A stretch of 32,000 nt of DNA from an uncultured Candidatus Nitrosopumilus sp. (GTDB lineage Archaea > Thermoproteota > Nitrososphaeria > Nitrososphaerales > Nitrosopumilaceae): NCBI GenBank assembly GCA_905612275.1, contig CAJQRM010000003.1, positions 9,305 through 41,304 on the forward strand. Reading direction: 5' to 3'. The notes under the pieces were generated by a model. That model searched no databases. It was not told the origin of the DNA and saw only the letters and a list, made by a program, of their open reading frames with translations. The first letter of the stretch is position 1. Each line of letters starts with the position of its first letter. A program made the position numbers and the translations under genes. Below, piece by piece: positions 6,196 through 29,095 of this stretch.

Positions 6196-8268
6196 ATGCG
6201 CCCGATTAAGATATTTTTATGTGATTTCACATATGATACTGTTACTTTATCAGTTGATGGTTTTCCATTGAATGTAGGATATATTGCATCATATGCAAAA
6301 ATGAAATTCAAGGAAAAAGTTGAAATTCATCTTTTTAAATATATAGAAAAACTTGAAGAGGCTCTTGAAACATCAATTCCAGATGTTATTGGATTTGCTA
6401 ATTATGCTTGGAATAGGCAAATCAATAAAGAAATCTCTAGAATATTTCTAGAAAAAAATAAGAATGGATTAGTAGTTTGGGGTGGTCCAAATTTTCCTGC
6501 TGATGTTAAATCACAAGAATCTTTTTTTAAAAAATTTCCTCAAGTTGATATTTATGTTCCTATTGAAGGTGAAATCGGATTCTCAAATATTATAAAAGAA
6601 ATCTTTACCTTGCCTTCATTTGATCTTATACGAAAAAACATTCTCACAAAATCTGTACCTGGTTGTATAGTAAAATCTGATGATGGAAAATTAAACTTCT
6701 CATTTTCTACAGAGAGAATTAAATCGCTTGATGAAATTCCTTCACCCTATCTTACTGGTATTTTAGATGAATTTTTTGATGAAAGATTAGTTCCAATGAT
6801 TCAAACTAATCGTGGATGCCCATTTTCATGTACCTTTTGTGTTGATGGTTCTGATTCTGTAAATAAGATTAATCAATTTTCTACACAACGTGTTGATGAA
6901 GAATTAAATTATATTGCTAAACATGTTCCAAATAACCAACACAATCTTCACATCAGTGATCTAAATTTCGGAATGTATACAAGAGATGTTGAAGTATGTG
7001 ATTCAATAAATAATATCCAAGAAAAATATGGTTACCCACATTTTGTAAAAATTACAAGTGGAAAAAATAATCCTGAAAAAATTGGAAAAGCAATAAAAAA
7101 ACTTGGAAACACAACAAGTATGTCACTAAGTGTACAATCATTAAACGATCAAATACTATCTAATATTAAACGAGACAATATTAGTTCTGAAAAATTGGTT
7201 CAGCTTGGTCCAGCATTAAAAAATGAAGGACTTGATACTGTGTGTGATGTAATACTTGGATTACCTGGTGAAACTTATGATACAGCTATTCAAACAATAA
7301 AAGATGTTCTTAACGCAAACATAGACTGGATAAATATCTGGACTCTGATGCTTCTTGATGGTTCTGAACTTAATACGCCTAAAGAACGAGAAAAATGGAA
7401 TCTAAAATCTAAATTTAGAATAATCCCTAGAGATTTTGTTAAATTTAAGTCTGGAAAAGTTGTTATGGAAATTGAAGAGGTTGGTATTGGTACAAATGCT
7501 CTATCTTTTAATGATTATGTTGAATTACGACTTTTCAGTTTAATAATAAAAATAATCTCTGCTACACCTTGTTATAGATCTATATTCAAATTTATAAAAT
7601 TTTATGATGTAAAAATATTTGATTTGGCTTTTTCCATGCTTAAGAATACTAATCTTTCTTCAAAAAAATTACAGATATTCTTTGAGGAATTTAAGCAATA
7701 CACTATTGATGAATTATGGGATTCTGAAGCTGAATTAATTGAACATTATCAGAATCCTTTGGAATATGAAAAATTATTGAATGGAAGTGTTGGTCAAAAT
7801 GTTGCCTTTTATTTTCATGCAATTGCAATATCTGATCATATGTCTGATTTTACAGACTTTATTATACAGAATTCAAGAATATTACTTGAAAATCACACAA
7901 TAGATGATTTTAATTCCCAATTAAATTCTATTGAACAATACTGTAAAGGAAGTTGCGAAAACATTTTTGGTGAAGATAGATTGAAATCAAATCCTGAATT
8001 TATTTTTGATTATGATATTTTAACTTGGATGAATACTGGAGTAACTGCTTCATTGAACTCGTTTAAACTAGATCAAAAATCTAAAATTAAATTTTCTTTA
8101 ACACAAGAACAGTATGATGTATTAGAAGATAAATTAAATATATTTGGTCATAATAAAATTGGAAAAAGCCAATCTGTTAACTGGGTTCCTCAACATCTTT
8201 TTTGGCGAAAACCTTTACTGCAAAATAATAAAGGTAGTAGATCCGCTGGTTCCAGTCTAGACAAATAG
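6196..8268 (+). CDS. B12-binding-domain (class B-like) radical SAM protein, paralog 1 (690 aa)
   Basis: The CX3CX2C radical SAM motif occurs in TNRGCPFSCTFCVDG. The N-terminal Rossmann-like region (DVIGFANYAW...VVWGGPNFP) is typical of cobalamin-binding-domain radical SAM enzymes. It is collinear over its full length with the ORF at 13410-15485. Confidence 0.85.
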   Translation: MRPIKIFLCDFTYDTVTLSVDGFPLNVGYIASYAKMKFKEKVEIHLFKYIEKLEEALETSIPDVIGFANYAWNRQINKEISRIFLEKNKNGLVVWGGPNFPADVKSQESFFKKFPQVDIYVPIEGEIGFSNIIKEIFTLPSFDLIRKNILTKSVPGCIVKSDDGKLNFSFSTERIKSLDEIPSPYLTGILDEFFDERLVPMIQTNRGCPFSCTFCVDGSDSVNKINQFSTQRVDEELNYIAKHVPNNQHNLHISDLNFGMYTRDVEVCDSINNIQEKYGYPHFVKITSGKNNPEKIGKAIKKLGNTTSMSLSVQSLNDQILSNIKRDNISSEKLVQLGPALKNEGLDTVCDVILGLPGETYDTAIQTIKDVLNANIDWINIWTLMLLDGSELNTPKEREKWNLKSKFRIIPRDFVKFKSGKVVMEIEEVGIGTNALSFNDYVELRLFSLIIKIISATPCYRSIFKFIKFYDVKIFDLAFSMLKNTNLSSKKLQIFFEEFKQYTIDELWDSEAELIEHYQNPLEYEKLLNGSVGQNVAFYFHAIAISDHMSDFTDFIIQNSRILLENHTIDDFNSQLNSIEQYCKGSCENIFGEDRLKSNPEFIFDYDILTWMNTGVTASLNSFKLDQKSKIKFSLTQEQYDVLEDKLNIFGHNKIGKSQSVNWVPQHLFWRKPLLQNNKGSRSAGSSLDK

Positions 8269-9645: not shown

Positions 9646-10599
9646 TTAAATATTTTTAAATATTTTGCCATGATTAATTTTTTTTAAAAGTTCAATTATG
9701 TTATTTTTTTCAACAGAAATTGGATTATTATCTAAATGTTTTCTATCTTTAAGTATAATTTCACTTGCTGTATCAAAATCTTGTTTTAAAAATATTGGTT
9801 CAAAATTTAATTTTTTAACTAATTTTTTAAATCTTGAATAAAAAATTGAATTATTAAAAAAATGAGATGCTGTAGTAGTAAATGCTAATGCATGTCCATG
9901 ACTATAACCTTCATTAGAAAAAACGTATGATAGAGCATGACCTAATGTTGTTGAACAGTTACCAAATCCTAATCCAGTCATGAGTGAACCTAATGCTAAG
10001 TTTTCATATTTTTCATTAATAATTGCATCTTCCAAAATATCAAATGCTTTTTTACATAAAAATTTGGTATGATAATTTCCACTTTTACTATCATATCCTT
10101 CTGAACATTGAGCACAAGCATCTATTGCAGAATTTCTTAAAATTTTGGGGGGGCAATTATTTAAAAAATATGAGTCAACAATAGCAATATCTGCAAAAAT
10201 TTGTTTATCATGAAAACTTTTCTTTTTTCCATTTATTGTTAATACTGAAATTTTTGTTACTTCGCTACCACTGCCAAATGTTGTAGGAATCATAATTTTT
10301 CTCTTCTTTAATTTGAAACCTACAAATTTTGCAACATCTAAAGAACTACCTCCTCCAAGTCCTATAACTGTAGAAAATTTTTCATTTTTAAATTGGGAAA
10401 TTATGTTTTCAACAGTATTCATTGAAGGGTTTGGTTCAACATTATCAAATATTTTAAAATTATTTCCTTTAATATAATCAATCCATCCACGAGATTTTGC
10501 ACCTTTTGAAGTGATTATTAAGCAATCATTTGGATATGAATACTCTGATGCTGCATATTTACCAAAAATTATATGATTAGGTTGTTGAATTTGAAACAA
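9646..10599 (-). CDS. Iron-containing (group III) alcohol dehydrogenase, candidate phosphonoacetaldehyde reductase (PhpC/FomC/Pdh-like)
   Basis: 317-aa ORF starting with TTG. It has the Fe-ADH glycine motif GLGGGSSLDVAKF and a His-rich metal region (GHALSY...SHGHALA). It is divergent from ppm across a 55-nt gap. The functional assignment comes from context. Confidence 0.75.
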   Translation of the reverse strand: MFQIQQPNHIIFGKYAASEYSYPNDCLIITSKGAKSRGWIDYIKGNNFKIFDNVEPNPSMNTVENIISQFKNEKFSTVIGLGGGSSLDVAKFVGFKLKKRKIMIPTTFGSGSEVTKISVLTINGKKKSFHDKQIFADIAIVDSYFLNNCPPKILRNSAIDACAQCSEGYDSKSGNYHTKFLCKKAFDILEDAIINEKYENLALGSLMTGLGFGNCSTTLGHALSYVFSNEGYSHGHALAFTTTASHFFNNSIFYSRFKKLVKKLNFEPIFLKQDFDTASEIILKDRKHLDNNPISVEKNNIIELLKKINHGKIFKNI

Positions 10600-10654: not shown

Positions 10655-11551
10655 ATGAATCAAGCTGAAAATTTAGTTAATTTATTAGAAAAAAAAGAAA
10701 TCGTGAAGGTTTGTGGAGCATATGATGCGATGTCAGCAAAACTAGTTGAATTGAATGGATTTGACGCTATTTGGGCTGGAAGTTTTGCAATTTCAGCAAT
10801 TCATAATGTTCCAGATGCAAGTATTTTAACAATGACAGAATTCTTTAACGCTGCATCAAATATGGCACAAACATGTCAGATTCCAGTTATTGCAGATTGT
10901 GATACAGGTTATGGTGATGCAAATAATGTAAGACATATGGTTAAAAAATATGAGAATGCAGGAATTGCAGGAATTTGTATGGAAGATAAAACATTTCCAA
11001 AATCAAACAGTTTACTTAAAGGTGGAGATAATCAATTATTGTCTGAAAAAGATTTTGTAGCAAAAATTTTAGCTGCAAATGAAGCAAAACAAAATAAATC
11101 ATTTACAATAATTGCTCGTATTGAGGCATTAATTTCAGGTATAGGAATGAAAGAAGCTCTCAAAAGAGCATATGCTTATGAAAAGGCAGGTGCTGATTTA
11201 ATTTTGATTCATTCAAAAAAAATTTCACCAGAGGAGATTTTTGAATTTTCAGAATCTTGGAATGGTAGTGTTCCTCTCGTAGTTATTCCAACAACATATT
11301 ATTCAGTAAAAATTGATGAATTAATAGATCATAAAATAAAAATGGTCATATATGCAAATCAAACATTAAGAGCAGTTCATTTATCACTTTCAAGATTACT
11401 TCAGAAAATGAGTGATGCTAACAGTATGGATGAGGTACAAGATCAAATGTCATCTATGGAAGATATTTTTCAATTACAAGAAACGTATGATTTAAAATCT
11501 CAAGAAAAAAGTATTGAAGAAAAATTACGCAAACTAGGTTATATCGCTTGA
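10655..11551 (+). CDS. ppm: Phosphoenolpyruvate mutase (PEP phosphomutase)
   Basis: 298-aa ICL/PEPM-fold protein carrying the Ppm-diagnostic EDKx5NS motif as GICMEDKTFPKSNSL, plus ADCDTGYGD. Confidence 0.9.
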   Translation: MNQAENLVNLLEKKEIVKVCGAYDAMSAKLVELNGFDAIWAGSFAISAIHNVPDASILTMTEFFNAASNMAQTCQIPVIADCDTGYGDANNVRHMVKKYENAGIAGICMEDKTFPKSNSLLKGGDNQLLSEKDFVAKILAANEAKQNKSFTIIARIEALISGIGMKEALKRAYAYEKAGADLILIHSKKISPEEIFEFSESWNGSVPLVVIPTTYYSVKIDELIDHKIKMVIYANQTLRAVHLSLSRLLQKMSDANSMDEVQDQMSSMEDIFQLQETYDLKSQEKSIEEKLRKLGYIA

Positions 11552-12036
11552 AAAAATTATTTCAGCATGAAATATTAGATTTTTTTGTGAAAAATGACAT
11601 AGAAAATTTTGTTGGTGTTCCTGATTCTACCTTAAAACAGTTTATTTCTTATGCACTTAAAAAAAAGAAAATCATTATTGCAGCCAGAGAAGAAGAAGCT
11701 ATAGGTATAGCTACTGGAATGGCATTATCTGGAAGTAATTCATTAGTTTTTATGCAAAATGCAGGATTTGCAAATTCGTTAAGTACAATTACTTCATTAG
11801 TTCAATTATACAAAATCCCGTTAATTTTTTTAATTGGTTGGAGGGGCTATCTAAAAGAAGATGCACCAGAACATCGTAAAATTGGGAAGATTCAACCGGA
11901 TTTATTAAAAATTATTCAATTACCAACAAAAATTATTTCAGATAAAAATTGGAAAAAGAGTTGTAAATGGGCCATTAACAAAATAGAGAGTAAAAAATCA
12001 TGTGCATTGGTAATAAGAAGGGAATTTTATGATTAG
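11548..12036 (+). CDS. ppd: Phosphonopyruvate decarboxylase, alpha (N-terminal TPP pyrimidine-binding) subunit
   Basis: 162 aa with a TTG start that overlaps the ppm stop by 4 nt. VGVPDSTLKQF...REEEAIGIATGMALSG...MQNAGFANS is typical of Ppd/ComD N-domains. Confidence 0.85.
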   Translation: MKKLFQHEILDFFVKNDIENFVGVPDSTLKQFISYALKKKKIIIAAREEEAIGIATGMALSGSNSLVFMQNAGFANSLSTITSLVQLYKIPLIFLIGWRGYLKEDAPEHRKIGKIQPDLLKIIQLPTKIISDKNWKKSCKWAINKIESKKSCALVIRREFYD

Positions 12037-12577
12037 AAAAGAAGCAATGAGAATAATTTTAGAAGAAATTGGGGATGATCCAATTATATCTGCAAATGGA
12101 TTTATCAGCAGAGATCTTTTTGAATTAAAAGAAAAAAATACAAATTTTTACATGATAGGTTCTATGGGACTTGCTTCATCAATTGGGTTAGGGGTAGCAA
12201 TAAAAAATCCAAAAAAAACAATTTATGTTTTTGATGGTGATGGCAATATTCTTATGAATTTAGGATCATTAACAACAATTGGAACAATTAAACCAAAAAA
12301 TTTTATTCATATTATATTTGATAATCATGCTCATGAATCTACTGGAGGTCAACCAACAAATACAAAAAATATTTCAATTTCAAACATTGGAAAAGTAACT
12401 AATTTCCATGTTTTTGAAATAAATGATATAAATAATCTGAGGAGACAAATTAAAAAAATTAAAAAAATTAATGGTACAATAATGATTGTTGTAAAAATTA
12501 ATAATAGTAAAATACGAAGTGGGCGCGTTACACTAGATCCAGTACTTATAAAAAACAGATTCATGGAATCATTATAG
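12029..12577 (+). CDS. ppd: Phosphonopyruvate decarboxylase, beta (C-terminal TPP diphosphate-binding) subunit
   Basis: 182 aa, overlapping the alpha subunit by 8 nt. The TPP motif is GSMGLASSIGLG...FDGDGNILMNLGSL...FDNHAHESTGGQPT. Confidence 0.85.
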   Translation: MIRKEAMRIILEEIGDDPIISANGFISRDLFELKEKNTNFYMIGSMGLASSIGLGVAIKNPKKTIYVFDGDGNILMNLGSLTTIGTIKPKNFIHIIFDNHAHESTGGQPTNTKNISISNIGKVTNFHVFEINDINNLRRQIKKIKKINGTIMIVVKINNSKIRSGRVTLDPVLIKNRFMESL

Positions 12578-12584
12578 AATAAAA

Positions 12585-13334
12585 TTGAAAGCGATAATTA
12601 TTGCAGCAGGTATAGGATCAAGGTTAGGTAATTTAACAAAGAATTTACCAAAACCTTTGATAGATGTGAATGGTAAATCAATTATTGAAAGACAGATTTC
12701 ATCATTTAGAAAGGTTGGAATTAATGAAATTACAATAGTTACAGGTTATAAAAAAAATAAATTCATTTTTAAAAATATTAATTATGTGTTTAATCCAAAA
12801 TATGAAGAGGTAGAACAAGCATTTAGTTTAATGGTTGCACGAAAACAAATTTTTGGTGATGTCATTATATCTTTTGGTGATATAATTTTTGAAGATAAAA
12901 TAATTGAACAAATTTTAGAAATAAAAAATGATGTTGTGATAGGTGTAGAACAGAATTGGATGAAATCATATGAAAAAAGAGAAGATAATCCACCCACAAT
13001 GTCAGATTTTATTGCAATTAAAAATGGAAAAATAATCAAACTTTTTAGAAATTTAAAAGAATTTGATGAAGATTGTGTGATTACGGAGTTTACTGGTTTA
13101 TTCAAATTATCTCCAAAAGGTTCAAAAATAATTACTGAAAAATATACATTTCTAGAACAAAATCATTCGGGTAAATTTCATGATGCTATTTCATTGAAAA
13201 AAGCAAAAATCATTGATCTGTTACAAGAATTATATGAAAATGGTATCAATATGGAAGCACATATCTTAAAAGGGAAATGGTGTGAAATTGATACTCAACA
13301 AGATTTAGAAATAGCTAAACAAATGTTCAAGTAG
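12585..13334 (+). CDS. LicC/PntC-type nucleotidyltransferase (candidate phosphonate cytidylyltransferase), copy 1
   Basis: 249 aa. The TTG start is confirmed by alignment with copy 2. The N-terminal NTP-binding loop is (M)KAIIIAAGIGSRLG..LPKPLIDVNGKSIIERQI, and the C-terminus is GKWCEIDTQQDL. It lies 7 nt downstream of ppd-beta. Confidence 0.8.
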   Translation: MKAIIIAAGIGSRLGNLTKNLPKPLIDVNGKSIIERQISSFRKVGINEITIVTGYKKNKFIFKNINYVFNPKYEEVEQAFSLMVARKQIFGDVIISFGDIIFEDKIIEQILEIKNDVVIGVEQNWMKSYEKREDNPPTMSDFIAIKNGKIIKLFRNLKEFDEDCVITEFTGLFKLSPKGSKIITEKYTFLEQNHSGKFHDAISLKKAKIIDLLQELYENGINMEAHILKGKWCEIDTQQDLEIAKQMFK

Positions 13335-13409: not shown

Positions 13410-15485
13410 TTGAAAAGTAATAACCCATTAAAGATCTATTTAGGGGATTTAACATATGATACAGTTACTTTAGCCACAGAAGCTATGCCACTCAATGTTG
13501 GTTATGCAGCAAGTTACTGTATCAAAAAATTTGGATCAAATGTTGATATTACGATTTTCAAATATATTGATGAATTAGATACAGCCATACATAATTCACC
13601 GCCAGATATTTTGGGTTTAAGTAATTATTGTTGGTCACATAATGTAAGTCTTGAAATGTTCAAAATGTTAAGAAAAGTAAAACCGGATGCAATAACGGTT
13701 ATGGGTGGACCGAATTTTCCCATTGATTTTCCATCTCAAGGAAAATTTATGAAAAAAAATTCACAAATTGATTACTATGTTCCCATAGATGGAGAAGAAG
13801 GTTTTTCAAATATTGTTGAACATGCATTAAATTCAACTCGTGAAAAAATGAGAGACGAAGTATTAAAAAATGAGATCGATGGATGTGTTTCATTAGATCC
13901 AGATGGAAAATTAAAATATACAATTCCTGTACTTAGAATAAAACATCTGGATGAAATACCATCGCCATACACAACAGGATTAATGGATAAATTTTTTGAT
14001 GGAAAACTTACACCAATGTTACAAACAAACAGAGGATGTCCTTTCAAATGTACATTTTGCACTGATGGGAAAGATGAAGTTAACAAAGTGAATTCATTTA
14101 GTACAAAAAGGGTCAAGGAAGAACTTGATTATATGGTAAAAATGATTCCAGAGAATACACATAATTTGTTAATTAGTGATTTAAATTTTGGAATGTATCC
14201 ACGTGATCAAGAAACTTGTGATTATATTGCTGAACATCAAAAAAAACATGATTTTCCACATTTTATTCTAGTTTCAACGGGTAAAAATCAAAAAGAAAAA
14301 ATTATCAAAGCCATTAACAAATTAAGTAGTTCAATAAGATTAGTAATGTCAGTTCAATCTATGGATCAAGAAGTTCTAACAAATATCAAAAGAGATAACA
14401 TTAGTGTTGATCAAATGATGCAATTAGCACCTGCTATTAAAGATGCCAAATTACTTACAAGATCTGAAGTGATTTCTGGATTACCAGGAGATACCTATGA
14501 AATTGAAATTAATACTCTACGGGATTTGGTTCATGCAAAGATGGATGAAATACAAGTACATACTTGTATGTTACTTGATGGATCTGAAATGGCGACTCCT
14601 GCAGAAAGAAAGAAATGGAAGTTCATCACAAGGTTCAGAGTTCTTCAAAGAGATTTTGCAGAATTAAGTAATGGTAAAAAAGTTGTAGAAGTTGAAGAAG
14701 TAGTAGTTGGCAATGAGAAAATGACTATAGACGAGTATGTTCAAATTCGCATTTTGGCATTTATTATCTATGTAACAGGAAGAGGAATTGTATATGATCC
14801 AATTTTGAAGATTCTTAGAGAACATGAAATTGATATTTTTGATTTTTATTTAAGAATCAAAGATAGTTTAGATACAGCGCCAGAATTAATTCAAGATTTG
14901 TTTAATCGTTTTGAGCAATCTACACGAAATGAATTATGGGATTCCAAAGAAGAAATATTAGAATATTATCAAAATAGTAAAAATTACCAAAAACTATTGG
15001 ATGGAGAAGATGGGATTAATGTAATGTATCATTATCTAGCTGAAGTAACTGTAGAAAACATGGATTCATGGGGAGATTATATTTTAAGAATTGCTAAAAA
15101 TCTATTACAAGAATTAAAAGAAAATAGTATGGACATCGATGAAGAATTTTTGCAAATTTCAAATTATTGTCATGGTGTATCACATAATACTATGGGAGTA
15201 GATCGTATGTTAACAAACCCAGAATTTGAATTTAGTTATGATATTATTAATTGGTTAGAAGATTCTAATGAAGCACATCTATCAAACTTCAAACTTCAAC
15301 AATCGACGAAAATTTCATTTCAATTGACAGATGAACAATTTAAATCCATTCAAGATACCATTGAAATGTTTGGAAATACAAAAGTTGGAAGAAGTAAGGC
15401 AATGAGAATGATAGCAGTGGAAACTCTTTGGAGACGGCCTATCAAATTAGTTAAAAATAATTTAGAAAATCAAATAGTTCAGTAA
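13410..15485 (+). CDS. B12-binding-domain (class B-like) radical SAM protein, paralog 2 (691 aa)
   Basis: TTG start. The CX3CX2C motif occurs in TNRGCPFKCTFCTDG. The N-terminal region is ILGLSNYCW...VMGGPNFP. It lies on the same strand as ppm-ppd-NT1, 75 nt downstream of NT1. Confidence 0.85.
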   Translation: MKSNNPLKIYLGDLTYDTVTLATEAMPLNVGYAASYCIKKFGSNVDITIFKYIDELDTAIHNSPPDILGLSNYCWSHNVSLEMFKMLRKVKPDAITVMGGPNFPIDFPSQGKFMKKNSQIDYYVPIDGEEGFSNIVEHALNSTREKMRDEVLKNEIDGCVSLDPDGKLKYTIPVLRIKHLDEIPSPYTTGLMDKFFDGKLTPMLQTNRGCPFKCTFCTDGKDEVNKVNSFSTKRVKEELDYMVKMIPENTHNLLISDLNFGMYPRDQETCDYIAEHQKKHDFPHFILVSTGKNQKEKIIKAINKLSSSIRLVMSVQSMDQEVLTNIKRDNISVDQMMQLAPAIKDAKLLTRSEVISGLPGDTYEIEINTLRDLVHAKMDEIQVHTCMLLDGSEMATPAERKKWKFITRFRVLQRDFAELSNGKKVVEVEEVVVGNEKMTIDEYVQIRILAFIIYVTGRGIVYDPILKILREHEIDIFDFYLRIKDSLDTAPELIQDLFNRFEQSTRNELWDSKEEILEYYQNSKNYQKLLDGEDGINVMYHYLAEVTVENMDSWGDYILRIAKNLLQELKENSMDIDEEFLQISNYCHGVSHNTMGVDRMLTNPEFEFSYDIINWLEDSNEAHLSNFKLQQSTKISFQLTDEQFKSIQDTIEMFGNTKVGRSKAMRMIAVETLWRRPIKLVKNNLENQIVQ

Positions 15486-15493
15486 AACTTGTA

Positions 15494-16279
15494 TTAATTT
15501 TCTACCGGAGGATATTTTAATTCATCAAGGCGAATTATTTTTGATTTCCAGTTATCATTATCAAAAGAAAAAATTCTAAAACCAGGTGGAATTGGATCAC
15601 ATTTTAAAAAATCTGTTCCTTTTTGAAATTGAACACTAGTAGCAGGAGTGGTAAATATGGTAATGTTTTCTAAATGTCCCTGAAATTCTTGATGTACATG
15701 ACCACAACTAATCAACCGAATTTGTGGATTTTGTTTTAAAGTTTCTATAAAAGGATCAGGATTTTTTAGACCCAGTAAATCAGTCCATTTTGTTTTTACA
15801 GGTATTGGGGGGTGATGCTGAAATAGAATAGTGTTTTTATTTTTATATTTATTTAACATACTTTTTAACCAAAGTAACGTTTCATCAGAAATTGTACCAT
15901 AAAGCTTTCCAAATACATGAGTATCCAATCCTATCAACTGCCAAGAATTGGTAGAAATTGAAAAATTTATGGGTCCATTTTTATTTTCTACACATTCAGG
16001 AAAAACTTTACGAATTAATTTTCTATCATCATGATTTCCAGGAATGATCTTACATTTTGAAATCATATCACCTAAGAGTTCTTTCACTGTTTGATAGCTA
16101 ATTAATTCCTCATCAGAAGTAAGATCACCAGTAATAATGATATGATCAAAAGTAATGTTCAAATCTACAACTTTAACTAAAATATCTTTTAGGGTTTTGA
16201 TAGTTGGAACACCAAAAAATTTTGTTTTAGGATCAGAAAATATATGAAAATCAGTTAGTTGTAAAACATTTAGAACCAC
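15494..16279 (-). CDS. Calcineurin-like metallophosphoesterase (CpdA/GpdQ-type phosphodiesterase)
   Basis: 261 aa with a GTG start. All signature motifs are present in order: LTDFH (DxH), ITGDL (GD), PGNHDD (GNHD/E), FQHHPP and CGHVH (GHxH). Confidence 0.8.
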   Translation of the reverse strand: MVLNVLQLTDFHIFSDPKTKFFGVPTIKTLKDILVKVVDLNITFDHIIITGDLTSDEELISYQTVKELLGDMISKCKIIPGNHDDRKLIRKVFPECVENKNGPINFSISTNSWQLIGLDTHVFGKLYGTISDETLLWLKSMLNKYKNKNTILFQHHPPIPVKTKWTDLLGLKNPDPFIETLKQNPQIRLISCGHVHQEFQGHLENITIFTTPATSVQFQKGTDFLKCDPIPPGFRIFSFDNDNWKSKIIRLDELKYPPVEN

Positions 16280-16402: not shown

Positions 16403-16903
16403 GTGTATAATGGTAAAGCCTTCAATGTAAATATTCATAATTTAAAAATTAAAGGAAAAAAAGTCAAACGGGAAATTATCGATCAAGTTGATGCTGCAGT
16501 TGTTTTAGCATTTGATGGAAATGATGTGATTTTAATAAAACAGAATCATTTTCCACAAGGTAACCTACTTGAAATTCCTGGAGGCAAAATAGAAAAAGGG
16601 GAAAATCCAAAAACTGCAGCATCAAGAGAATTTTCGGAAGAGACTGGATATCAAGCAAAAAAAATTAAACATTTATTGACATTTTATCCAAATGTAGGGT
16701 ACAGTACTTTAACAATTCATTGTTTTGTTGCGTCTGAAGTAAAAAAAATCAAAAAACCAAAGCCAAATGATGAAGATGAATTCATAGAAGTAAAAAGAAT
16801 GAATTTCAAAAGACTTTTGGGATTAATTAAAAGTGGAAAAATTACTGATCTAAAAACTATTTGTGCTGCATTAATATATGAATCAAAATTTTTTGGTAAA
16901 TAA
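16403..16903 (+). CDS. Nudix hydrolase (nucleoside-diphosphate-X pyrophosphatase type)
   Basis: 166 aa with a GTG start. The Nudix box GX5EX7REUXEEXGU is present as GGKIEKGENPKTAASREFSEETGY. Confidence 0.85.
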   Translation: MYNGKAFNVNIHNLKIKGKKVKREIIDQVDAAVVLAFDGNDVILIKQNHFPQGNLLEIPGGKIEKGENPKTAASREFSEETGYQAKKIKHLLTFYPNVGYSTLTIHCFVASEVKKIKKPKPNDEDEFIEVKRMNFKRLLGLIKSGKITDLKTICAALIYESKFFGK

Positions 16904-16940
16904 TAGACTAAATTATATTTCTTTAAAATTTTATAAATTT

Positions 16941-17693
16941 ATGAAAGCCATAATTCTTGCAGCTGGAATTGGTTCTAGATTAGGTGAACTAACAAAAATA
17001 TTACCGAAATCGTTGATAGATGTGAATGGCAAATCAATTATTGAAAGACAAATTGAAGTATTTAGGAAAGCTGGTATTAATGATATAATTCTTGTAATTG
17101 GTCCATTTGCTGAAAAGTTTTTGTTTAACAATGTCAAATACATTAATGGAAAAAAAACATTTTCACATAACATTCTTTATTCTTTAATTGAAGCTAAATC
17201 TGAAATGACAGATGATGTTATTATTTCATACGGCGATATAATTTTTGAAGATAGTATAATTCAAGCAATTTTAAATTCTAAAAATGAAATTGGTTTAGCA
17301 GTAGATCTTAAATGGAAAGAAATGTACCAAAATAAACCTAAAAATCTTGTAGATAAAGTATGTAATGTATTTATTGAAAATAACAAAATTATAAAAATTG
17401 GATATAAAGAAAATTTAGGAGAATCAGAGGGTAAAATTATTGGAGAATTTATCGGGTTAGCTAAATTTAGTAAAAAAGCTATAGATAATTTTCTAGAAAT
17501 TTATTTAGAATTAGAAAAATCTCATAATGGAAAATTTCATGAATCACCATCAATAAAAGAAGGCATCATCACTGATATGTGTCAAGAACTTATAGATAGA
17601 AACTATATCATAAATCCAATTTTTACAGATGGAAAATGGTGTGAAATTGATACTATAGATGATTTGAAAAATGCAAAAATATTATTTCAATAA
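16941..17693 (+). CDS. LicC/PntC-type nucleotidyltransferase, copy 2
   Basis: The track ORF starts at 16878, but alignment with copy 1 places the start at ATG 16941 (MKAIILAAGIGSRLGELTKILPKSLIDVNGKSIIERQI). Shared blocks are DVIISYGDIIFED, HNGKFH and GKWCEIDTIDDL. Confidence 0.8.
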   Translation: MKAIILAAGIGSRLGELTKILPKSLIDVNGKSIIERQIEVFRKAGINDIILVIGPFAEKFLFNNVKYINGKKTFSHNILYSLIEAKSEMTDDVIISYGDIIFEDSIIQAILNSKNEIGLAVDLKWKEMYQNKPKNLVDKVCNVFIENNKIIKIGYKENLGESEGKIIGEFIGLAKFSKKAIDNFLEIYLELEKSHNGKFHESPSIKEGIITDMCQELIDRNYIINPIFTDGKWCEIDTIDDLKNAKILFQ

Positions 17694-17696
17694 AAT

Positions 17697-18830
17697 TTAA
17701 TTAATTATTGATCTTTCTTGAATTTTTAAGAATTCTTTCCACAAAATATTTTCAATTTCTAATCCAGTGTTAATGAGGTTATTTTCTTCAAGAGAATCAT
17801 GTTTCAAATCATACAATTCTTTAGTATTATTATGCTCATTTACAATTAATTTCCATTCAGAGGTACGGATTGATTTTGTATTAGGTTTTTTTGGTGGCAT
17901 TTTACTATTAAGAGGATTTCCAGTCTCAGTGTAGGCAAAATTCTCTTTAGGATTTTGATTATTAATCAAAGGTAATAATGAAACTCCATCTAATGGTTCA
18001 AAATTGGTATCTAATTTAATTTCCAAGTGTTCAAGAATTGTAGGCATGAAATCTACACTTCTTACTTGGGAAGTTATCTCATTGTGTTTTAAATCTGAAG
18101 AGAAATAAGAATAAAATGTATTAATTGTGGATTCATAACAAAGTGCCCCATATGCACGTTCACCAAATTTTTCTCCTAAACTCATTCCATGATCTGAAAA
18201 AATTATTATTATAGAATTTTCCCATAAGTTTAACTCATCTAATTTTTGTTGAATATATTCAAGATATTTTTCAGCATCTGTAAACAATCTATCATATCTT
18301 TCTTCATTTTGTTTCCTATTTTTAAAATATTCATCACTAAAATTAGTAAATGATTTTAAAACAGAATCTCGTATGCCTTCATGAATTCCACTATAATGTA
18401 AATGTAGGAAAAAATTTTGTTTTGAATCTACCAATTTTTTCATTTTACATAATAATTTGTAATGATGAGTTTTAAGATTAATGTTACTTTCATCAGATAC
18501 ATAATATTCATCAAAATTTCTTCGTGGCATGATTAAATCAGAAGGAACATCTGCACAGGTATAGAAATTATTTTCATGTAAATAATCAATAATTGTTTTA
18601 AATTTAACATGATTAAATTTATGTGAATGCCAATAGCTGTAACACCCAGTTCTATTTCCATATGATCCACTAATTAAAGCATATAATGCTGAATTAGTGT
18701 ATGGTGCATAAGGTATTGATTGTGAAAAGAAAACAGAATGTTCTTTTCCAAAATTTTGTATTATAGATGAATTTTTTGCTCTATCTACTCTACCACCATC
18801 AATACAAATTAAAATTAAATTTTTTTTCAA
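17697..18830 (-). CDS. Alkaline-phosphatase-superfamily enzyme (sulfatase-fold) lacking the sulfatase CxPxR motif; probable phospho/phosphono-ester transferase or hydrolase
   Basis: 377 aa and apparently soluble. It has an N-terminal metal-binding ICIDGGR and the IIFSDHGMSLGE motif of the sulfatase/AP fold. The nucleophile position reads YAPYTNSALYALISG instead of C/S-x-P-x-R. Confidence 0.7.
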   Translation of the reverse strand: MKKNLILICIDGGRVDRAKNSSIIQNFGKEHSVFFSQSIPYAPYTNSALYALISGSYGNRTGCYSYWHSHKFNHVKFKTIIDYLHENNFYTCADVPSDLIMPRRNFDEYYVSDESNINLKTHHYKLLCKMKKLVDSKQNFFLHLHYSGIHEGIRDSVLKSFTNFSDEYFKNRKQNEERYDRLFTDAEKYLEYIQQKLDELNLWENSIIIIFSDHGMSLGEKFGERAYGALCYESTINTFYSYFSSDLKHNEITSQVRSVDFMPTILEHLEIKLDTNFEPLDGVSLLPLINNQNPKENFAYTETGNPLNSKMPPKKPNTKSIRTSEWKLIVNEHNNTKELYDLKHDSLEENNLINTGLEIENILWKEFLKIQERSIIN

Positions 18831-19049: not shown

Positions 19050-19847
19050 TTGTTTAGTACGGCAGATCCAGATAATTTCAGTTTTTTAGAACCCGTGGTT
19101 TCTGATTTTAAGAAGATATTGGTTTCAGGTTGTGGTTTTGTAATCATTGATGGTACGAGTTTTGAAAAATTTTCTAAAGAAGAAGTTCAAATGATTTATC
19201 AAATTTTTGCTAAATCTTTAGGTGAATTATATGTTCAAAATATCAAAAAAGAAAAATTAGTTTTAATTAAAAATGAAGGTAAATCAATGAAAACTGGTGG
19301 AAGATATCATCAAACAAAAGAAGGTGGATCATATCATACAGATAGTCCTCAATGGGAAAATGTTCCAGATATAATTGGATTATGTTGTATTAATCCTGCA
19401 AAAACTGGAGGAACAAGTAAATTTATCAGTAGTTATACAGTTCATAATCTATTTTTACAAAAGGATAGTCAATTATTAGAAATATTATACAATAAATTTT
19501 ATTTTGATAAAAGAGGTGAAATAAAAGAAAATGAAGAACCAACTATTTTTGAACCAATAATGCAATTTAAAAATAATAAATTAATGTTTAGATATCTTAG
19601 AGACTATGTTGATAGTGGACATAAAATTCAAAATAAACCATTAACAGAGGAACAAGATAGATCATTAAAATTATTGGATGAAATTTTATCAGAAGAAAAT
19701 ATTGTAGTTAGTTATGATTTAAAGAAATTTGATATGACTTTTTTTAATAATCATAGAGTGATTCATGGGAGAACAAGTTTTGAAGATTTTGAAGATGAAG
19801 AAAAGAAAAGACTAATGATTAGAACTTGGATTAAATTTTCTTCTTAA
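19050..19847 (+). CDS. TauD/TfdA-family Fe(II)/2-oxoglutarate-dependent dioxygenase; the start codon is uncertain
   Basis: The HxD facial-triad motif appears in GGSYHTDSPQW, and the distal His/Arg in NNHRVIHGRTSF. The frame is open upstream to 18915 with coding-like sequence but no ATG/GTG/TTG before the TTG at 19050. Confidence 0.72.
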   Translation: MFSTADPDNFSFLEPVVSDFKKILVSGCGFVIIDGTSFEKFSKEEVQMIYQIFAKSLGELYVQNIKKEKLVLIKNEGKSMKTGGRYHQTKEGGSYHTDSPQWENVPDIIGLCCINPAKTGGTSKFISSYTVHNLFLQKDSQLLEILYNKFYFDKRGEIKENEEPTIFEPIMQFKNNKLMFRYLRDYVDSGHKIQNKPLTEEQDRSLKLLDEILSEENIVVSYDLKKFDMTFFNNHRVIHGRTSFEDFEDEEKKRLMIRTWIKFSS

Positions 19848-25156: not shown

Positions 25157-26821
25157 ATGGCACTAATTCAGATTTCTAATCAATCAAGTAAGAATTTAAG
25201 TAAAAAATCTACTATCAGATTTACTCAAAGTATTTGCCCTGATTGTAACATGATTTTAGATGCTGAAGTCTTTGAGCGAGATAGTCAAGTTTTCATGTCA
25301 AAAGTTTGCCCAACTCACGGTGAATGTGAGGAATTATATTTTGGTTCTTATGAAATGTATAAAAAATTTAGTACTTACTGGATGGATGGTAAAGGTGCAC
25401 ATTCTCCAAATGTAATGATTGACAAATGTTCTTGTCCAAATAACTGTGGTTTATGTTCAAACCACTTATCTCACAGTGGATTAGCAAACATGATTGTAAC
25501 TAATAGATGTGATTTAACATGTTGGTACTGTTTCTTTTATGTAAAGAAAGGTCTTGAAGGCGCTTACATGTATGAACCAGACCATACTCAAGTCAGAGGT
25601 ATGATGAAAACTCTAAGAGCAGAAAGGCCAATTCCAGGAAACTCTATGCAAATTACTGGTGGTGAACCAATGCTTAGAGATGATATTGCTGATGTTATTC
25701 AAATTATGAAAGAAGAAGGCGTTGACCATATTCAAATGAATACAAATGGTATTAGACATGCAATGGATCCAGAAGCAGCAAGAGAAGTAAGACTTGCTGG
25801 ATGTAACAACTTGTATCTCTCCTTTGACGGTGTAACTGCACGAACAAATCCTAAAAATCACTGGGAAATTCCATATGCTCTTGATAGTTGCAGAAAAACA
25901 GGTACTACTGTAGTATTTGTCCCAACAGTAATCAAATCAATTAATGATCATGAATTAGGCGGAATTATTAGATATGCACAAAAGAATATGGATGTAGTTC
26001 ATGCTGTTAACTTTCAACCCGTATCCTTAACTGGAAGAATGGGTAAATCTGAACGTGAAAAATACAGAATTACAGTCCCTGATTGTGTTCAAAGAATTGA
26101 AGAACAAACAGATGGTCAAGTAACTGTTGATGATTGGTTCCCAGTTCCAAGTTGTATGCCATTAACTAATGTAATTGAAGCATTCTCAAGTAAACCAAAA
26201 TATGAATTATCCATTCACTTTGCTTGTGGTGCAGGAACATACATCTTTGAAGATGCAGATACAAAGAAATTTGTTCCATTAACAAAATTCTGTGATATTC
26301 AAGGAATGTTAGAACTCTTTGAAGATAAAGCAGAAGAAATTCGTTCTGGTAAAAACAAATACTTTACAATGCTTGAAGTTGTAAGAAAACTAAAAGGTTT
26401 TGTTGATAGTAAGAAACAACCAGCAGGATTAGATTTAGCAAAAATGTTTGGTAACATACTCATGAAAAGATCATTTGATTCAGTTGGTTCATGGCACGTC
26501 AAGGGATTATTCCTTGGTATGATGCATTTCCAAGACAAATACAATGAAGATTTAGAAAGATTACAAAGATGTGATATTCACTATGTAACTCCGGACCTTA
26601 GAATCGTTCCATTTTGTGCATTTAATGTAATTCCAGAATGGTACAGAGACAGAATTCAAAAGAAATATTCTATCACTGTTGAAGAATGGGAAGAACGTGA
26701 AGGTGTAAAACTTGAAGATGGTCTATACAGAGGACTAATGAGACGTGGAGCAGGTGATGAGCTTGCTGCTGGCTGTGCAAAGAGTCAGATGTTTCATGAT
26801 GCTTCTCAGGCAACTATGTAA
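25157..26821 (+). CDS. Multi-cluster radical SAM protein, probably of the tetraether lipid synthase (Tes / GDGT-MAS) family
   Basis: 554 aa. The N-terminal rubredoxin-like site is CPDCN...CPTHGEC. An auxiliary cluster motif CSCPNNCGLCSNH follows, then the radical SAM CX3CX2C motif in TNRCDLTCWYCFF, and C-terminal conserved cysteines (RCDIHYVTPDLRIVPFCAFN). The radical SAM call is firm. The Tes assignment rests on my recollection of that family's architecture. Confidence 0.6.
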   Translation: MALIQISNQSSKNLSKKSTIRFTQSICPDCNMILDAEVFERDSQVFMSKVCPTHGECEELYFGSYEMYKKFSTYWMDGKGAHSPNVMIDKCSCPNNCGLCSNHLSHSGLANMIVTNRCDLTCWYCFFYVKKGLEGAYMYEPDHTQVRGMMKTLRAERPIPGNSMQITGGEPMLRDDIADVIQIMKEEGVDHIQMNTNGIRHAMDPEAAREVRLAGCNNLYLSFDGVTARTNPKNHWEIPYALDSCRKTGTTVVFVPTVIKSINDHELGGIIRYAQKNMDVVHAVNFQPVSLTGRMGKSEREKYRITVPDCVQRIEEQTDGQVTVDDWFPVPSCMPLTNVIEAFSSKPKYELSIHFACGAGTYIFEDADTKKFVPLTKFCDIQGMLELFEDKAEEIRSGKNKYFTMLEVVRKLKGFVDSKKQPAGLDLAKMFGNILMKRSFDSVGSWHVKGLFLGMMHFQDKYNEDLERLQRCDIHYVTPDLRIVPFCAFNVIPEWYRDRIQKKYSITVEEWEEREGVKLEDGLYRGLMRRGAGDELAAGCAKSQMFHDASQATM

Positions 26822-26866
26822 TAGAATTATTTATTCAAAAGAGTAATAACCATTCACAGATTAATT

Positions 26867-29095
26867 TTGTTATTGAATTCTCAAGCTCAATTATTTCAAG
26901 TTGGTAGTTTTAATTTCAAATTAAATCATATTGTTATAATTGGAGTACTAGTTTTAGCATTTTCAATATCCTTTCTAATAAGATCTCAGCCTGCAGATTA
27001 TGGCAATGAATTAATGGAATTTGATCCATTTTTTAATTTTCGTGCTACTGAATATATTGTAGAAAATGGATTTTCTGAATATTTTGAATGGCGTGATGAT
27101 AAAAGTTGGTATTTACCATTAGATACTTCAGGTCTTGGTCAAACAACTAATCTTGAACAATTGGGAGGAGGAAGAGATGTTGCTGGTACTTCTCAAGTTA
27201 TGCTTCATACTACAACAGCTATCACTTATGAAATATTTGGAGGAAATTCAAGCTTATATGATTTCACTATATTATTTCCAGCAGTAATTGGTTCATTAAC
27301 TGTAATTGTTATTTTTGGATTAGTAAGATTATTTGCAGGAACTACAGCCGGATTATTTGCATCATTACTTTTTGCAGTATCCCTTCCAATTATTTTACGA
27401 GGGACTATTGGATGGTTTAAATCAGAACCATTAGGAATTTTTTATGCTTTATTGGGTTTCTACTTCTTTTTTAGTGGAATAAGATCTGAAAATAAAAAAA
27501 TTGCATTTTCCAAAATTATTCTTGGAGGGATCATTATGACCTTTGCAATGGCTTCTTGGGGAGGAATTCAATTTTTAATAATTCCATTAGGATTATTTAT
27601 TTTAGCATTACCTTTTGTTAGAAAAGATCATAAATTTTTGCTTTGGAGCATTCCATTGTTTGTAGGAACTTTTCTTTTATCTGCAATTATGTTTGAACGA
27701 CCTGGACCTAATTTTGTATTTGGAGTAGGAGGGGCTTTATTGATAATTCCTACTATCTTTTTAGTAGTTTGTATATTTATTCAAAAAATAAGTAAAGATG
27801 AACATAAAATAAGAAATGGATTAATTTTATTATTTTCAATTCTAATTATTGGAGCCTTTTTAGTAACAATAAGTGAAGAACTAGATTTTTTACCATTACC
27901 CAGTTTTAGATATCTTAATGCACTTAATCCATTTTTAACAACTTTAGATCCTTTAACTGACTCAGTTGCAGAACATGCAACTACAAGTCTTCCGCTTTCA
28001 TTCCTTTTTCATTCTATTTTGTTAATTTTCTCTGCACTTGGTGCTTGGTTTCTTTTATCTAAAAAAATACCTCACTCTATAATTTTTGAAAGAAATGATA
28101 TGCGTGTATTTGTACTCATTATGGGAATAACTGGTGTTTATGTTAGTTCTGCATTTATTAGATTAGAGGTATTTGCATCTATATCATTAATTTTTCTTAC
28201 ATCCATTGGATTATCTATTTTAATAAAAGAAATTTTTAAAATTAATTTATCTAAGAAAAAAAATTATTTATTAAAAATTTCATCTATCACAATTATTTTT
28301 ATTTTATTTACAATTCCACTTGTTTATCCTACTACTAGTAATTGGATTAATGGTGTAGATTTTCCACCAACTATACTTAATGGTGGAACTTCATACCCTC
28401 CTAGCAATGATTGGTTAGAAACACTTGAATGGATAAAACTCAATACTCCTGAAGATTCAGTTGTTGCATCTTGGTGGGATTATGGATATTGGATTAGTAC
28501 TGTTGCTGAAAGAACTACATTAATTGATAATGCAACTCTTGGTGATTGGCAAATTAAAAAAGTTGCAGAAATATTTATGAGTACACCTGATGAAGCTTGG
28601 AATTTACTTACAGTATGGAATGTTGATTATGTAGTTGTATATGTTGCCGCACAAAGATTAGATGGAGATTGGAATGGTGACTCACTTTATGTTTTAAACG
28701 GTGGAGGCGATGAATCTAAAAAACCTTGGTTTATGCGTATAGCTGGTGTTGAACTTTCAAAATATTTAGAATCTGATAATCGAACTGGTACTAATTATTT
28801 TTGGAATGAAACATTGTTAGGTAAAATGATTCCATATAATACACTATTGTATTATAATGAAGAAGCTCAACAATCATATGAAATTTTTCAAACAGGAACT
28901 GTTCCAATTAGTGTTTTAGATATTAATTATAATGATGATGGTAATTATCCATTAAAATTAGTTCATACTTCACCTAGTTTTACTAATAAAAATATTGATA
29001 GATTTAGTGCTGTACTTGTATATGAAGTAAATAAAAATTATATTTTAATTAATGATGATTTAACAATAAATCAAAATATGAGTTTGGAAAATTAA
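26867..29095 (+). CDS. aglB: Archaeal oligosaccharyltransferase AglB (STT3 family)
   Basis: 742 aa with a TTG start. A multi-span N-terminal membrane domain is followed by the catalytic WWDYG motif (VASWWDYGYWIS) and a soluble C-terminal domain. Confidence 0.9.
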   Translation: MLLNSQAQLFQVGSFNFKLNHIVIIGVLVLAFSISFLIRSQPADYGNELMEFDPFFNFRATEYIVENGFSEYFEWRDDKSWYLPLDTSGLGQTTNLEQLGGGRDVAGTSQVMLHTTTAITYEIFGGNSSLYDFTILFPAVIGSLTVIVIFGLVRLFAGTTAGLFASLLFAVSLPIILRGTIGWFKSEPLGIFYALLGFYFFFSGIRSENKKIAFSKIILGGIIMTFAMASWGGIQFLIIPLGLFILALPFVRKDHKFLLWSIPLFVGTFLLSAIMFERPGPNFVFGVGGALLIIPTIFLVVCIFIQKISKDEHKIRNGLILLFSILIIGAFLVTISEELDFLPLPSFRYLNALNPFLTTLDPLTDSVAEHATTSLPLSFLFHSILLIFSALGAWFLLSKKIPHSIIFERNDMRVFVLIMGITGVYVSSAFIRLEVFASISLIFLTSIGLSILIKEIFKINLSKKKNYLLKISSITIIFILFTIPLVYPTTSNWINGVDFPPTILNGGTSYPPSNDWLETLEWIKLNTPEDSVVASWWDYGYWISTVAERTTLIDNATLGDWQIKKVAEIFMSTPDEAWNLLTVWNVDYVVVYVAAQRLDGDWNGDSLYVLNGGGDESKKPWFMRIAGVELSKYLESDNRTGTNYFWNETLLGKMIPYNTLLYYNEEAQQSYEIFQTGTVPISVLDINYNDDGNYPLKLVHTSPSFTNKNIDRFSAVLVYEVNKNYILINDDLTINQNMSLEN

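Follow-up and report, generated by a model that had tools for sequence, protein, structure and literature searches.

A TokK/CysS-like cobalamin-type radical SAM enzyme in the phosphonate gene cluster of a marine Nitrosopumilus: probable C-methylation of a nucleotide-activated phosphonate

What does a cobalamin-type radical S-adenosylmethionine (SAM) enzyme do in the phosphonate gene cluster of a marine ammonia-oxidising archaeon (AOA)? The question is raised by rSAM2, a protein of 691 amino acids (aa) encoded in a stretch of 32,000 nucleotides from an uncultured Candidatus Nitrosopumilus sp. (GenBank assembly GCA_905612275.1, contig CAJQRM010000003.1, positions 9,305 to 41,304 of the forward strand; hereafter “the window”). 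The window also encodes a 690-aa paralogue, rSAM1, and these two are the only copies of the family in the source genome (G000; window on contig C3), an assembly of 733 kb that is 54% complete. A first-pass annotation, made from the letters of the window, had weighed a phosphonate methylase against a membrane lipid-modifying enzyme and preferred the former. Our results indicate that rSAM2 is probably a cobalamin-dependent C-methyltransferase acting on a nucleotide-activated phosphonate.

Both open reading frames (ORFs; Table 1) proved to be real and to lie on the + strand, and the features ascribed to them are indeed present in both: GGPNFP (at residue 99 in rSAM2 and 96 in rSAM1), the CX3CX2C cluster motif, here CPF[KS]CTFC (at residues 210 and 208, respectively), and a shared C-terminal region of ca. 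250 aa. The proteins are 44% identical (67% positives) across 680 residues, including the final ~250, where both contain the blocks ELWDS and NPEF.F.YDI. The cluster cysteines (C210/C214/C217 in rSAM2, C208/C212/C215 in rSAM1) are invariant in 46 relatives, and the two proteins score 48 and 60 bits with the Radical_SAM model PF04055 (cut-off 29.5). Scores with the B12-binding model PF02310 (cut-off 32.1) are borderline in the Pfam search of the window (31.6 bits for rSAM2, 23.7 for rSAM1) and rise to 34.1 and 26.9 bits, respectively, when the whole genome is scanned; the modelled N-terminal domain of rSAM2 superposes on the cobalamin (Cbl) domains of TokK and CysS. With the Cys motif and a predicted N-terminal cobalamin-binding domain of Rossmann type, both proteins qualify as putative class B radical SAM enzymes.

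Within class B, the best NCBIfam model for both proteins is that of the KedN5 family (NF033712; 184 bits for rSAM2, 210 bits for rSAM1), in which NCBIfam groups TokK, ThnK and CysS as methylcobalamin-dependent radical SAM C-methyltransferases, and none of the remaining models for B12-dependent radical SAM (B12-rSAM) proteins (HpnJ, BchE, PhpK, Sden_1168) exceeds 53 bits. The only solved relatives in a sequence search of the PDB are TokK (8e-33) and CysS (1e-30), which are 681 and 645 aa long, so that the length of rSAM2 is normal for that type. An AlphaFold2 (AF2) model of rSAM2, built on an alignment of 46 family members (mean predicted local distance difference test score, pLDDT, 92.1; predicted template modelling score, pTM, 0.91), was compared with solved structures by Foldseek. 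It matches TokK (7kdx/7kdy) over its full length, in 663 columns, with an E value of 1e-34 and template modelling (TM) scores of 0.74/0.77, and CysS (9n1b-d) with TM scores of 0.69-0.77, whereas OxsB and TsrM reach only ~0.45. Judged by this model, rSAM2 is a three-domain enzyme of the TokK/CysS/KedN5 type, including the C-terminal substrate cap. Because the superposition on TokK and CysS covers the full length, the ~150 residues by which, according to the first-pass annotation, rSAM2 exceeds Fom3-type methylases would be this cap, and a novel appended domain is ruled out; the Fom3-type methylase with an extension implied by the first-pass annotation gives way to a different architecture. In TokK, the cap and the barrel together form the substrate pocket, and the signature residues of the group are W76 below the corrin, D-A-N at the GGE site (D250-N252) and W215, two residues past the Cys loop (PMC9204698). 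In the rSAM2 family, the equivalent of the first (W75) is invariant and D257-L-N259 nearly so, as matched by motif position and not by residue-level structural alignment. TokK and ThnK (carbapenem C6 alkylation) and CysS (cystobactamid) thus have the three-domain architecture with cap in common with rSAM2, but at only 18-20% identity.

The genomic context of rSAM2 is equally specific. The operon context ppm-ppdAB-NT1-rSAM2, on which the earlier preference for a phosphonate was based, is real, as judged by Pfam and NCBIfam matches and by the catalytic motif of Ppm; NT1, a LicC-like nucleotidyltransferase (NT), is separated from rSAM2 by 75 nt and stands directly upstream of it in every related locus showing that flank. 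A metagenome scan for rSAM2 relatives yielded 80 loci, and all 18 relatives (56-99% identity) with readable flanks have ppm-ppdAB-NT1 upstream and/or Nudix-NT2-sulfatase/TauD downstream. These 18 rows form one clade in a FastTree phylogeny of 95 rows (support 96), and the 12 phosphonate-context rows of an IQ-TREE phylogeny of 39 rows do so too (SH-aLRT 88), with a single change of context label. Of 151 genomes, 10 encode a true Ppm orthologue (>=60% identity), and both species genomes that bear the clade (G000 and G148) are among these. The tallies for ppm and Tes include three unpublished genomes (G077, G092, G093), each with a Tes match and only a ppm paralogue of ~28% identity, no true ppm; none of the three is among the genomes matching the rSAM family, and no individual conclusion depends on them. 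G148 belongs to another genus, and its island comprises mpnS, ppdB-ppdA-ppm, adh, glycosyltransferase (GT) genes, a sulfatase-fold gene, a TagF-like transferase, an NT, TauD, an rSAM2 orthologue (58%), a further GT, AglB and Tes. At twelve positions the phosphonate clade has a fixed residue that 57 sugar-context relatives do not share (F107, E223, Q294, M378, E380, H384, Q413, I452, Y480, L517, Y540 and M667), several of them beside family-invariant residues, a pattern that would fit a new substrate in an otherwise preserved catalytic frame. The phosphonate preference of the first-pass annotation is thus supported for rSAM2, with its single clade and its ppm and phosphonate-tailoring neighbours; rSAM1 groups with relatives from nonulosonic acid (NulO) and sugar clusters.

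We propose the following route. Ppm, PpdAB and the iron-dependent alcohol dehydrogenase (Fe-ADH) would produce 2-hydroxyethylphosphonate (HEP), which the LicC-like NT1 would couple to cytidine monophosphate (CMP). The 5'-deoxyadenosyl radical of rSAM2 would then take a hydrogen from an unactivated side-chain carbon of the phosphonate and methylcobalamin would give at least one methyl group to that carbon, the simplest product being CMP-2-hydroxypropylphosphonate. The FrbJ-like dioxygenase may hydroxylate the intermediate, and the product would be passed on to surface glycans via the sulfatase-fold or TagF-like transferases, or be released from the nucleotide by the Nudix hydrolase or the metallophosphoesterase. 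Methylation of a nucleotide-tagged phosphonate that a marine AOA would place on its surface sugars is the role that we regard as most likely. NT1, the dioxygenase and the Nudix hydrolase fit chemistry on a nucleotide-linked phosphonate as far as their predicted functions go. An NT next door is common to all contexts of the wider family, which suggests that the cap recognises a nucleotide handle, by analogy with TokK and CysS, which recognise a pantetheine handle; the substrates of the latter are pantetheinylated antibiotic precursors, whereas the rSAM family adjoins NTs in glycan and phosphonate clusters.

With its LicC-like NT1 and FrbJ-like TauD, the pathway resembles the logic of Fom1 and Fom3. 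In fosfomycin biosynthesis, Fom1 is the cytidylyltransferase, Fom3 C-methylates the CMP-linked phosphonate and FomD removes CMP (cf. PMC8158854), and the order of roles in the Streptomyces Fom1/Fom3/FomC/FomD pathway (Ppm, Ppd and Fe-ADH to HEP, cytidylylation, a B12 radical SAM step, CMP hydrolase) is mirrored here. All five functions of the Fom3 pathway (Ppm, Ppd, phosphonoacetaldehyde reductase, cytidylyltransferase and CMP hydrolase) are, by predicted function, encoded around rSAM2, in an arrangement kept in the 18 related loci. There are differences: the Fom1 cytidylyltransferase is fused to Ppm, whereas NT1 is free-standing and LicC-like; FomD acts as the hydrolase, while the candidate here is the Nudix hydrolase or the metallophosphoesterase; and the fosfomycin epoxidase has no counterpart in this cluster. 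Moreover, Fom3 clusters with MoeK5 and HpnJ, apart from the TokK/CysS similarity cluster (PMC9204698). The HpnJ model gives ~50 bits for rSAM1 and rSAM2, against 184-210 for KedN5, which suggests that rSAM2 and Fom3 belong to different subgroups of class B. Since Fom3 sits in a different similarity cluster, any Fom3-like role of rSAM2 would be convergent, an analogy and not orthology, and it seems that the TokK/CysS branch has here given rise to a pathway with the logic of that of Fom3.

Several observations weigh against this assignment, some of them concerning the substrate and others the chemistry. Both proteins score far below the KedN5 cut-off of 700 bits, and the match is limited to model positions 11-409 of 624. 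A relative that is 93% identical to rSAM2 (L097) keeps the module NT1-rSAM2-metallophosphoesterase-Nudix-NT2-sulfatase, while its ppm and ppdB are remnants of 29 and 28 residues, situated just upstream of the intact module (L097:8145-8353, metagenome contig Ga0209992_10002090); either the genes forming the C-P bond have been lost naturally here or the assembly is at fault. G148 also possesses MpnS, a would-be competitor for the same HEP, and the rSAM copy of genome G096 lies 846 kb away from the ppm-mpnS cluster of that genome. Members of the wider family (28-55% identity) adjoin NeuB, CMP-sugar synthetases, DegT, 4,6-dehydratases and sugar C-methyltransferases without ppm, and for this reason a sugar substrate is the ancestral expectation. 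This wider family is large (1,146 clusters at 50% identity with E <=1e-30, the best 150 being almost all full-length alignments; the search for related loci across genomes used a 12-sequence family alignment) and is also found in Nitrospina, Planctomycetota, Rhodospirillales, Flavobacteriales, Saccharothrix and others.

The main rival is, consequently, that rSAM2 modifies a nucleotide-activated sugar of a phosphonate-bearing glycan, i.e., a CMP-nonulosonic acid, a nucleoside diphosphate (NDP)-deoxysugar or an acyl substituent, and that its link with ppm reflects no more than a shared glycan island. It is the main rival because the rSAM2 clade is nested in a NulO/NDP-sugar family and rSAM1 falls in a sugar lineage. 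Most family members reside in such clusters: in G048, with DegT, CMP-transferase, Capsule_synth and NeuB; in other marine low-GC lineages and a GC-rich soil and peat lineage, which adjoin NeuB, CMP-sugar synthetase, DegT and PseB-like genes, NeuB being directly upstream of the family gene in the soil and peat loci; and in bacteria, where the family gene comes after an NT, a 4,6-dehydratase and a sugar C-methyltransferase. The sister lineage (G096, L115, L138) has GT2, GtrA, NAD-epimerase and NeuB surroundings, L097 retains the module without intact ppm and ppd, and NeuB is encoded in all five genomes checked and adjoins the ppm cluster in G096. However, the gene directly upstream in the phosphonate clade is always the LicC-like NT1, whose type acts on small phospho-alcohols, rather than NeuB or an NT for sugar 1-phosphates; the 12 clade-fixed substitutions set the clade apart from the sugar-context relatives; and the FrbJ-like dioxygenase and the Nudix hydrolase have precedents in phosphonate pathways. 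We, therefore, consider a sugar substrate for rSAM2 rather unlikely, and read the trees as indicating that a sugar-associated enzyme was recruited once into a phosphonate cluster.

For rSAM1 the situation is different. It pairs with a second copy in G148 (81%), located on another contig beside a phosphate transporter, and in both the FastTree and IQ-TREE phylogenies this pair nests in a lineage whose neighbouring genes encode epimerase, CMP-transferase, DegT and NeuB. Because rSAM1 nests in this sugar-context lineage, apart from the rSAM2 clade, a recent tandem-type duplication is ruled out. The first-pass annotation had treated the two paralogues as one question with two answers, phosphonate or lipid; they are not equivalent, and that choice omits the commonest context of the family, nucleotide-sugar and nonulosonic acid biosynthesis. 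rSAM1 may act on the same product as rSAM2 or on a nonulosonic acid of the same glycan.

As to the chemistry, B12-rSAM enzymes are known for reactions other than methylation, and rSAM2 might act on a phosphonate but perform a cobalamin-dependent rearrangement, a dehydrogenation or other radical chemistry, as do OxsB, BchE, HpnJ and the lipid desaturase Ted. Class B enzymes indeed catalyse rearrangements, cyclisations and desaturations (PMC9204698; bioRxiv 10.1101/2025.10.20.683597), and position 219 of rSAM2, as matched by motif position, is Asp, so that the second-sphere Trp of TokK after the Cys loop is missing. Yet the closest structures and profile (TokK, CysS, KedN5) are all those of radical C-methylases, and the family retains two hallmarks of that group, the Trp below the cobalamin and the D-x-N SAM motif, which makes a reaction other than methylation improbable.

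The weakest alternative, that rSAM1 and rSAM2 are enzymes modifying glycerol dialkyl glycerol tetraethers (GDGTs), as ring synthase, methylase or desaturase working with the nearby Tes, is highly improbable: B12-rSAM proteins do include Grs, Gmm, Cgm and Ted (bioRxiv 10.1101/2025.10.20.683597), and the Tes-like gene noted earlier 10 kb away (25157-26821), which scores 690 bits with NF045702 (cut-off 450), is genuine Tes and also adjoins the island in G148, but the distribution of the family is not that of a lipid gene. The first-pass annotation had held that a membrane-lipid role could not be excluded and had named, among the findings that would refute a phosphonate role, occurrence in all GDGT-ring-producing thaumarchaea irrespective of ppm. 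Among the 150 other Nitrosopumilaceae species genomes, strong family matches occur in only four (G148 with two copies, G096, G048 at 34% identity and G062 with a fragment), i.e., the family is present in about 5 of 150 genomes overall, whereas 139 of 150 contain the control, Tes of the window, at 89-99% identity. As far as we are aware, all members of the Nitrosopumilaceae make cyclised GDGTs. PF02310 scans of five complete Nitrosopumilaceae genomes returned only the small subunit of methylmalonyl-CoA mutase, MetH and a 285-aa protein, with no TokK-like B12-rSAM. Unlike GrsA/GrsB, Gmm and Cgm, which are likewise archaeal class B radical SAM proteins, the rSAM family is a rare accessory gene that is widespread in bacteria, many of which make no GDGTs. 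A Grs or lipid role was, therefore, rejected on distribution and subfamily placement; the real Grs homologue of these archaea was sought via PF02310 and not identified (the one weak extra match is FtsY), so that the rejection rests on distribution in place of a direct alignment. Tes and AglB border the variable phosphonate/glycan island in G000 (window 25157-29095) and in G148 (L005:4637-9894). The adjacency of Tes, a conserved core gene next to a variable glycosylation island (AglB, GTs), marks, on these gene orders, a conserved edge of the island rather than a functional connection.

The cluster also differs from other known phosphonate systems. The P-methyltransferases PhpK and SD_1168 (Sden_1168) are, like rSAM2, class B radical SAM proteins encoded beside ppm-ppd, but rSAM1 and rSAM2 score only 46-51 bits with the PhpK model (cut-off 600) and 36-39 bits with the Sden_1168 model (cut-off 575). 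A survey of Ppm and B12 domains in 351 Streptomyces-genus genomes, in which Fom3 was sought, yielded not Fom3 but a true Sden_1168-family enzyme (1154 bits) from a ppm-ppd cluster. In a profile comparison (hhalign) with this enzyme only the Cbl and radical SAM core aligned (residues 25-394, 21% identity), the C-terminal domain remaining unaligned; beyond this shared core rSAM2 is unrelated to SD_1168 and PhpK. With the MpnS-type thaumarchaeal cluster (Nitrosopumilus maritimus type; G096 locus L010) the window has the ppm-ppdAB-adh-NT-sulfatase backbone in common, but it is without MpnS and adds rSAM2, the Nudix hydrolase, a second NT and the FrbJ-like dioxygenase; in G148, MpnS and the rSAM module occur together. 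MpnS was sought in the window and in five related loci with long flanks and, G148 excepted, was not found; methylphosphonate is, for this reason, probably not the product of this cluster. The MpnS orthologue of G148 (G148:C9:2916-4280) adjoins ppdB in the same island as NT-TauD-rSAM2 and shares 60% identity with that of G096, for which the comparison with the MpnS of N. maritimus gave 660 bits. To judge from the gene content of G148, methylphosphonate synthesis and the rSAM route can coexist.

To the best of our knowledge, methylphosphonate is the only phosphonate tied to thaumarchaea so far. From a conserved, mostly MpnS-less cluster that combines cytidylylation with a B12 radical SAM step, another archaeal phosphonate would be expected, and the cluster supplies a concrete set of enzymes for it. 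More broadly, we tentatively suggest, as a possibility in which our confidence is limited, that marine AOA without MpnS in the cluster make a C-methylated phosphonate new to archaea (2-hydroxypropylphosphonate or a more branched or hydroxylated derivative being candidates), by means of one or two TokK-like iterative methylases and a CMP handle, that it is esterified to surface glycans, and that the sugar lineage was recruited once for this purpose. If true, ocean phosphonates would have a second source among the archaea. Repeta and colleagues reportedly described, in 2016, a phosphonate in dissolved organic matter (DOM) that yields propylene on C-P lyase cleavage, and a product such as this could be its origin. 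In the literature searched, cobalamin radical SAM enzymes were not described from thaumarchaeal phosphonate clusters or from nonulosonic acid pathways, and no text on propylene or hydroxypropylphosphonate in marine DOM was found. New in this study are the TokK/CysS structural assignment, the exclusion of Grs by distribution with Tes as a control, the single recruitment from a sugar family and the separate placement of rSAM1. Behind the rSAM2 branch stands a very large, unstudied family, embedded in NulO and deoxysugar clusters of bacteria and archaea, and radical C-methylation of surface sugars is, as far as we know, essentially unexplored. For lipid biomarker studies a false lead is removed, as genes of the rSAM1/rSAM2 type should not be counted as Grs homologues.

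Table 1. Coordinates (window positions) and supporting matches of the two radical SAM genes and of the phosphonate gene cluster around rSAM2.
Feature	Coordinates	Strand	Assignment and evidence
rSAM2	13410..15485	+	691-aa cobalamin-type radical SAM enzyme, TTG start; Pfam, NCBIfam and PDB matches, AF2/Foldseek
rSAM2 domains	~aa 1-190; ~195-440; ~441-682		Cbl-binding Rossmann; radical SAM barrel; TokK-type C-terminal cap (predicted)
rSAM1	6196..8268	+	690-aa paralogue, same family as rSAM2, different lineage
Fe-dependent alcohol dehydrogenase	9646..10599	-	Pfam Fe-ADH; NCBIfam Phn_Fe-ADH 87 bits
PEP mutase Ppm	10655..11551	+	PF13714 192 bits; TIGR02320 290 bits; EDKTFPKSNS (catalytic EDKxxxxxNS)
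Phosphonopyruvate decarboxylase, two subunits	ppdA 11548-12036; ppdB 12029-12577	+	TIGR03297, N- and C-terminal halves
NT1, LicC-like nucleotidyltransferase	12585..13334	+	Pfam NTP_transferase, NTP_transf_3; candidate phosphonate cytidylyltransferase
Calcineurin-like metallophosphoesterase	15494..16279	-	PF00149; CpdA-like 174 bits; retained in closest relatives L096-L099
Nudix hydrolase, NDP-X pyrophosphatase type	16403..16903	+	PF00293; candidate for nucleotide-tag removal
NT2, second LicC-like nucleotidyltransferase	16878..17693	+	47% identity to NT1
Sulfatase-fold protein (alkaline-phosphatase superfamily)	17697..18830	-	PF00884, Phosphodiest; candidate phosphono-transferase or esterase
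Fe(II)/2-oxoglutarate dioxygenase (TauD-type)	19050..19847	+	PF02668; best PDB relative FrbJ 3e-23

Some further details of the neighbourhood (Table 1) bear on the roles given above. The Fe-ADH, which adjoins ppm in related loci too, is likely the phosphonoacetaldehyde reductase that makes HEP. The best PDB relative of NT1 is the CTP:phosphocholine cytidylyltransferase LicC (5e-18), those of the Nudix hydrolase are ADP-ribose and GDP-mannose pyrophosphatases, and the Nudix gene is kept 3' of rSAM2 across the clade. The sulfatase-fold gene is kept both in the rSAM2 clade and in MpnS-type clusters. The TauD-type dioxygenase is placed between the NT and rSAM2 in G148, L103 and L106; its relative FrbJ belongs to the FR-900098 phosphonate pathway. 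Beyond the dioxygenase the window continues with housekeeping genes, Tes, AglB and GTs.

Other B12 radical SAM genes were encountered in these archaea when their Grs homologue was sought. The source genome contains a third one (G000:C40:20206-21765; L012:328-1890, - strand), which encodes a protein of 520 aa scoring 104-128 bits with the HpnJ, PhpK and Sden_1168 models, lies 7 kb from a NeuB gene (C40:13031-13747) and has no match in the 150 other genomes of the family Nitrosopumilaceae at E <=1e-60. An accessory B12 radical SAM protein of 480 aa (HpnJ model 205 bits, Sden_1168 model 139 bits) is encoded at L178:1334-2776 (G042:C2) and also in G064, G062, G002 and G140, i.e., in 5 of 151 Nitrosopumilaceae genomes. 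By their profile scores, Nitrosopumilaceae carry several unrelated, rare class B enzymes.

Within the TokK-like family itself, G048, a genome without ppm, has two genes on contig C1 (L007:2413-4398, - strand, and L007:17083-19227, + strand) whose products are 27% and 34% identical to rSAM2, in a nonulosonic acid island with DegT, CMP-sugar synthetase, Capsule_synth, a SAM methyltransferase, a HAD hydrolase and two NeuB genes. In G062, also without ppm, a free-standing ORF of 290 aa (G062:C1:35800-36690; L009:9795-10667, - strand) is 46% identical to residues 388-680 of rSAM2, i.e., the cap domain alone, and is located within an NDP-deoxysugar cluster (DegT, GNAT, RmlC-like, TylCIII-like C-methyltransferase, dehydratase, NT); it could be what is left of a longer gene, or else a substrate-binding protein that works on its own. 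The family member of Saccharothrix obliqua (L028:10001-11971; NZ_JAHXGQ010000008.1) is part of a longer open frame (1048 aa) and may thus be fused to another domain; its neighbourhood showed no match to any query gene. Finally, in a Rhodospirillales metagenome-assembled genome (LNEW01000002.1), a Ppd-like thiamine-diphosphate decarboxylase (L018:4640-5439) is encoded divergently upstream of a 32%-identical family member with NDP-sugar genes downstream; no ppm is found in the 5.8 kb available around it, and this locus may represent a second, independent link of the family to phosphonate or sulfonate chemistry.

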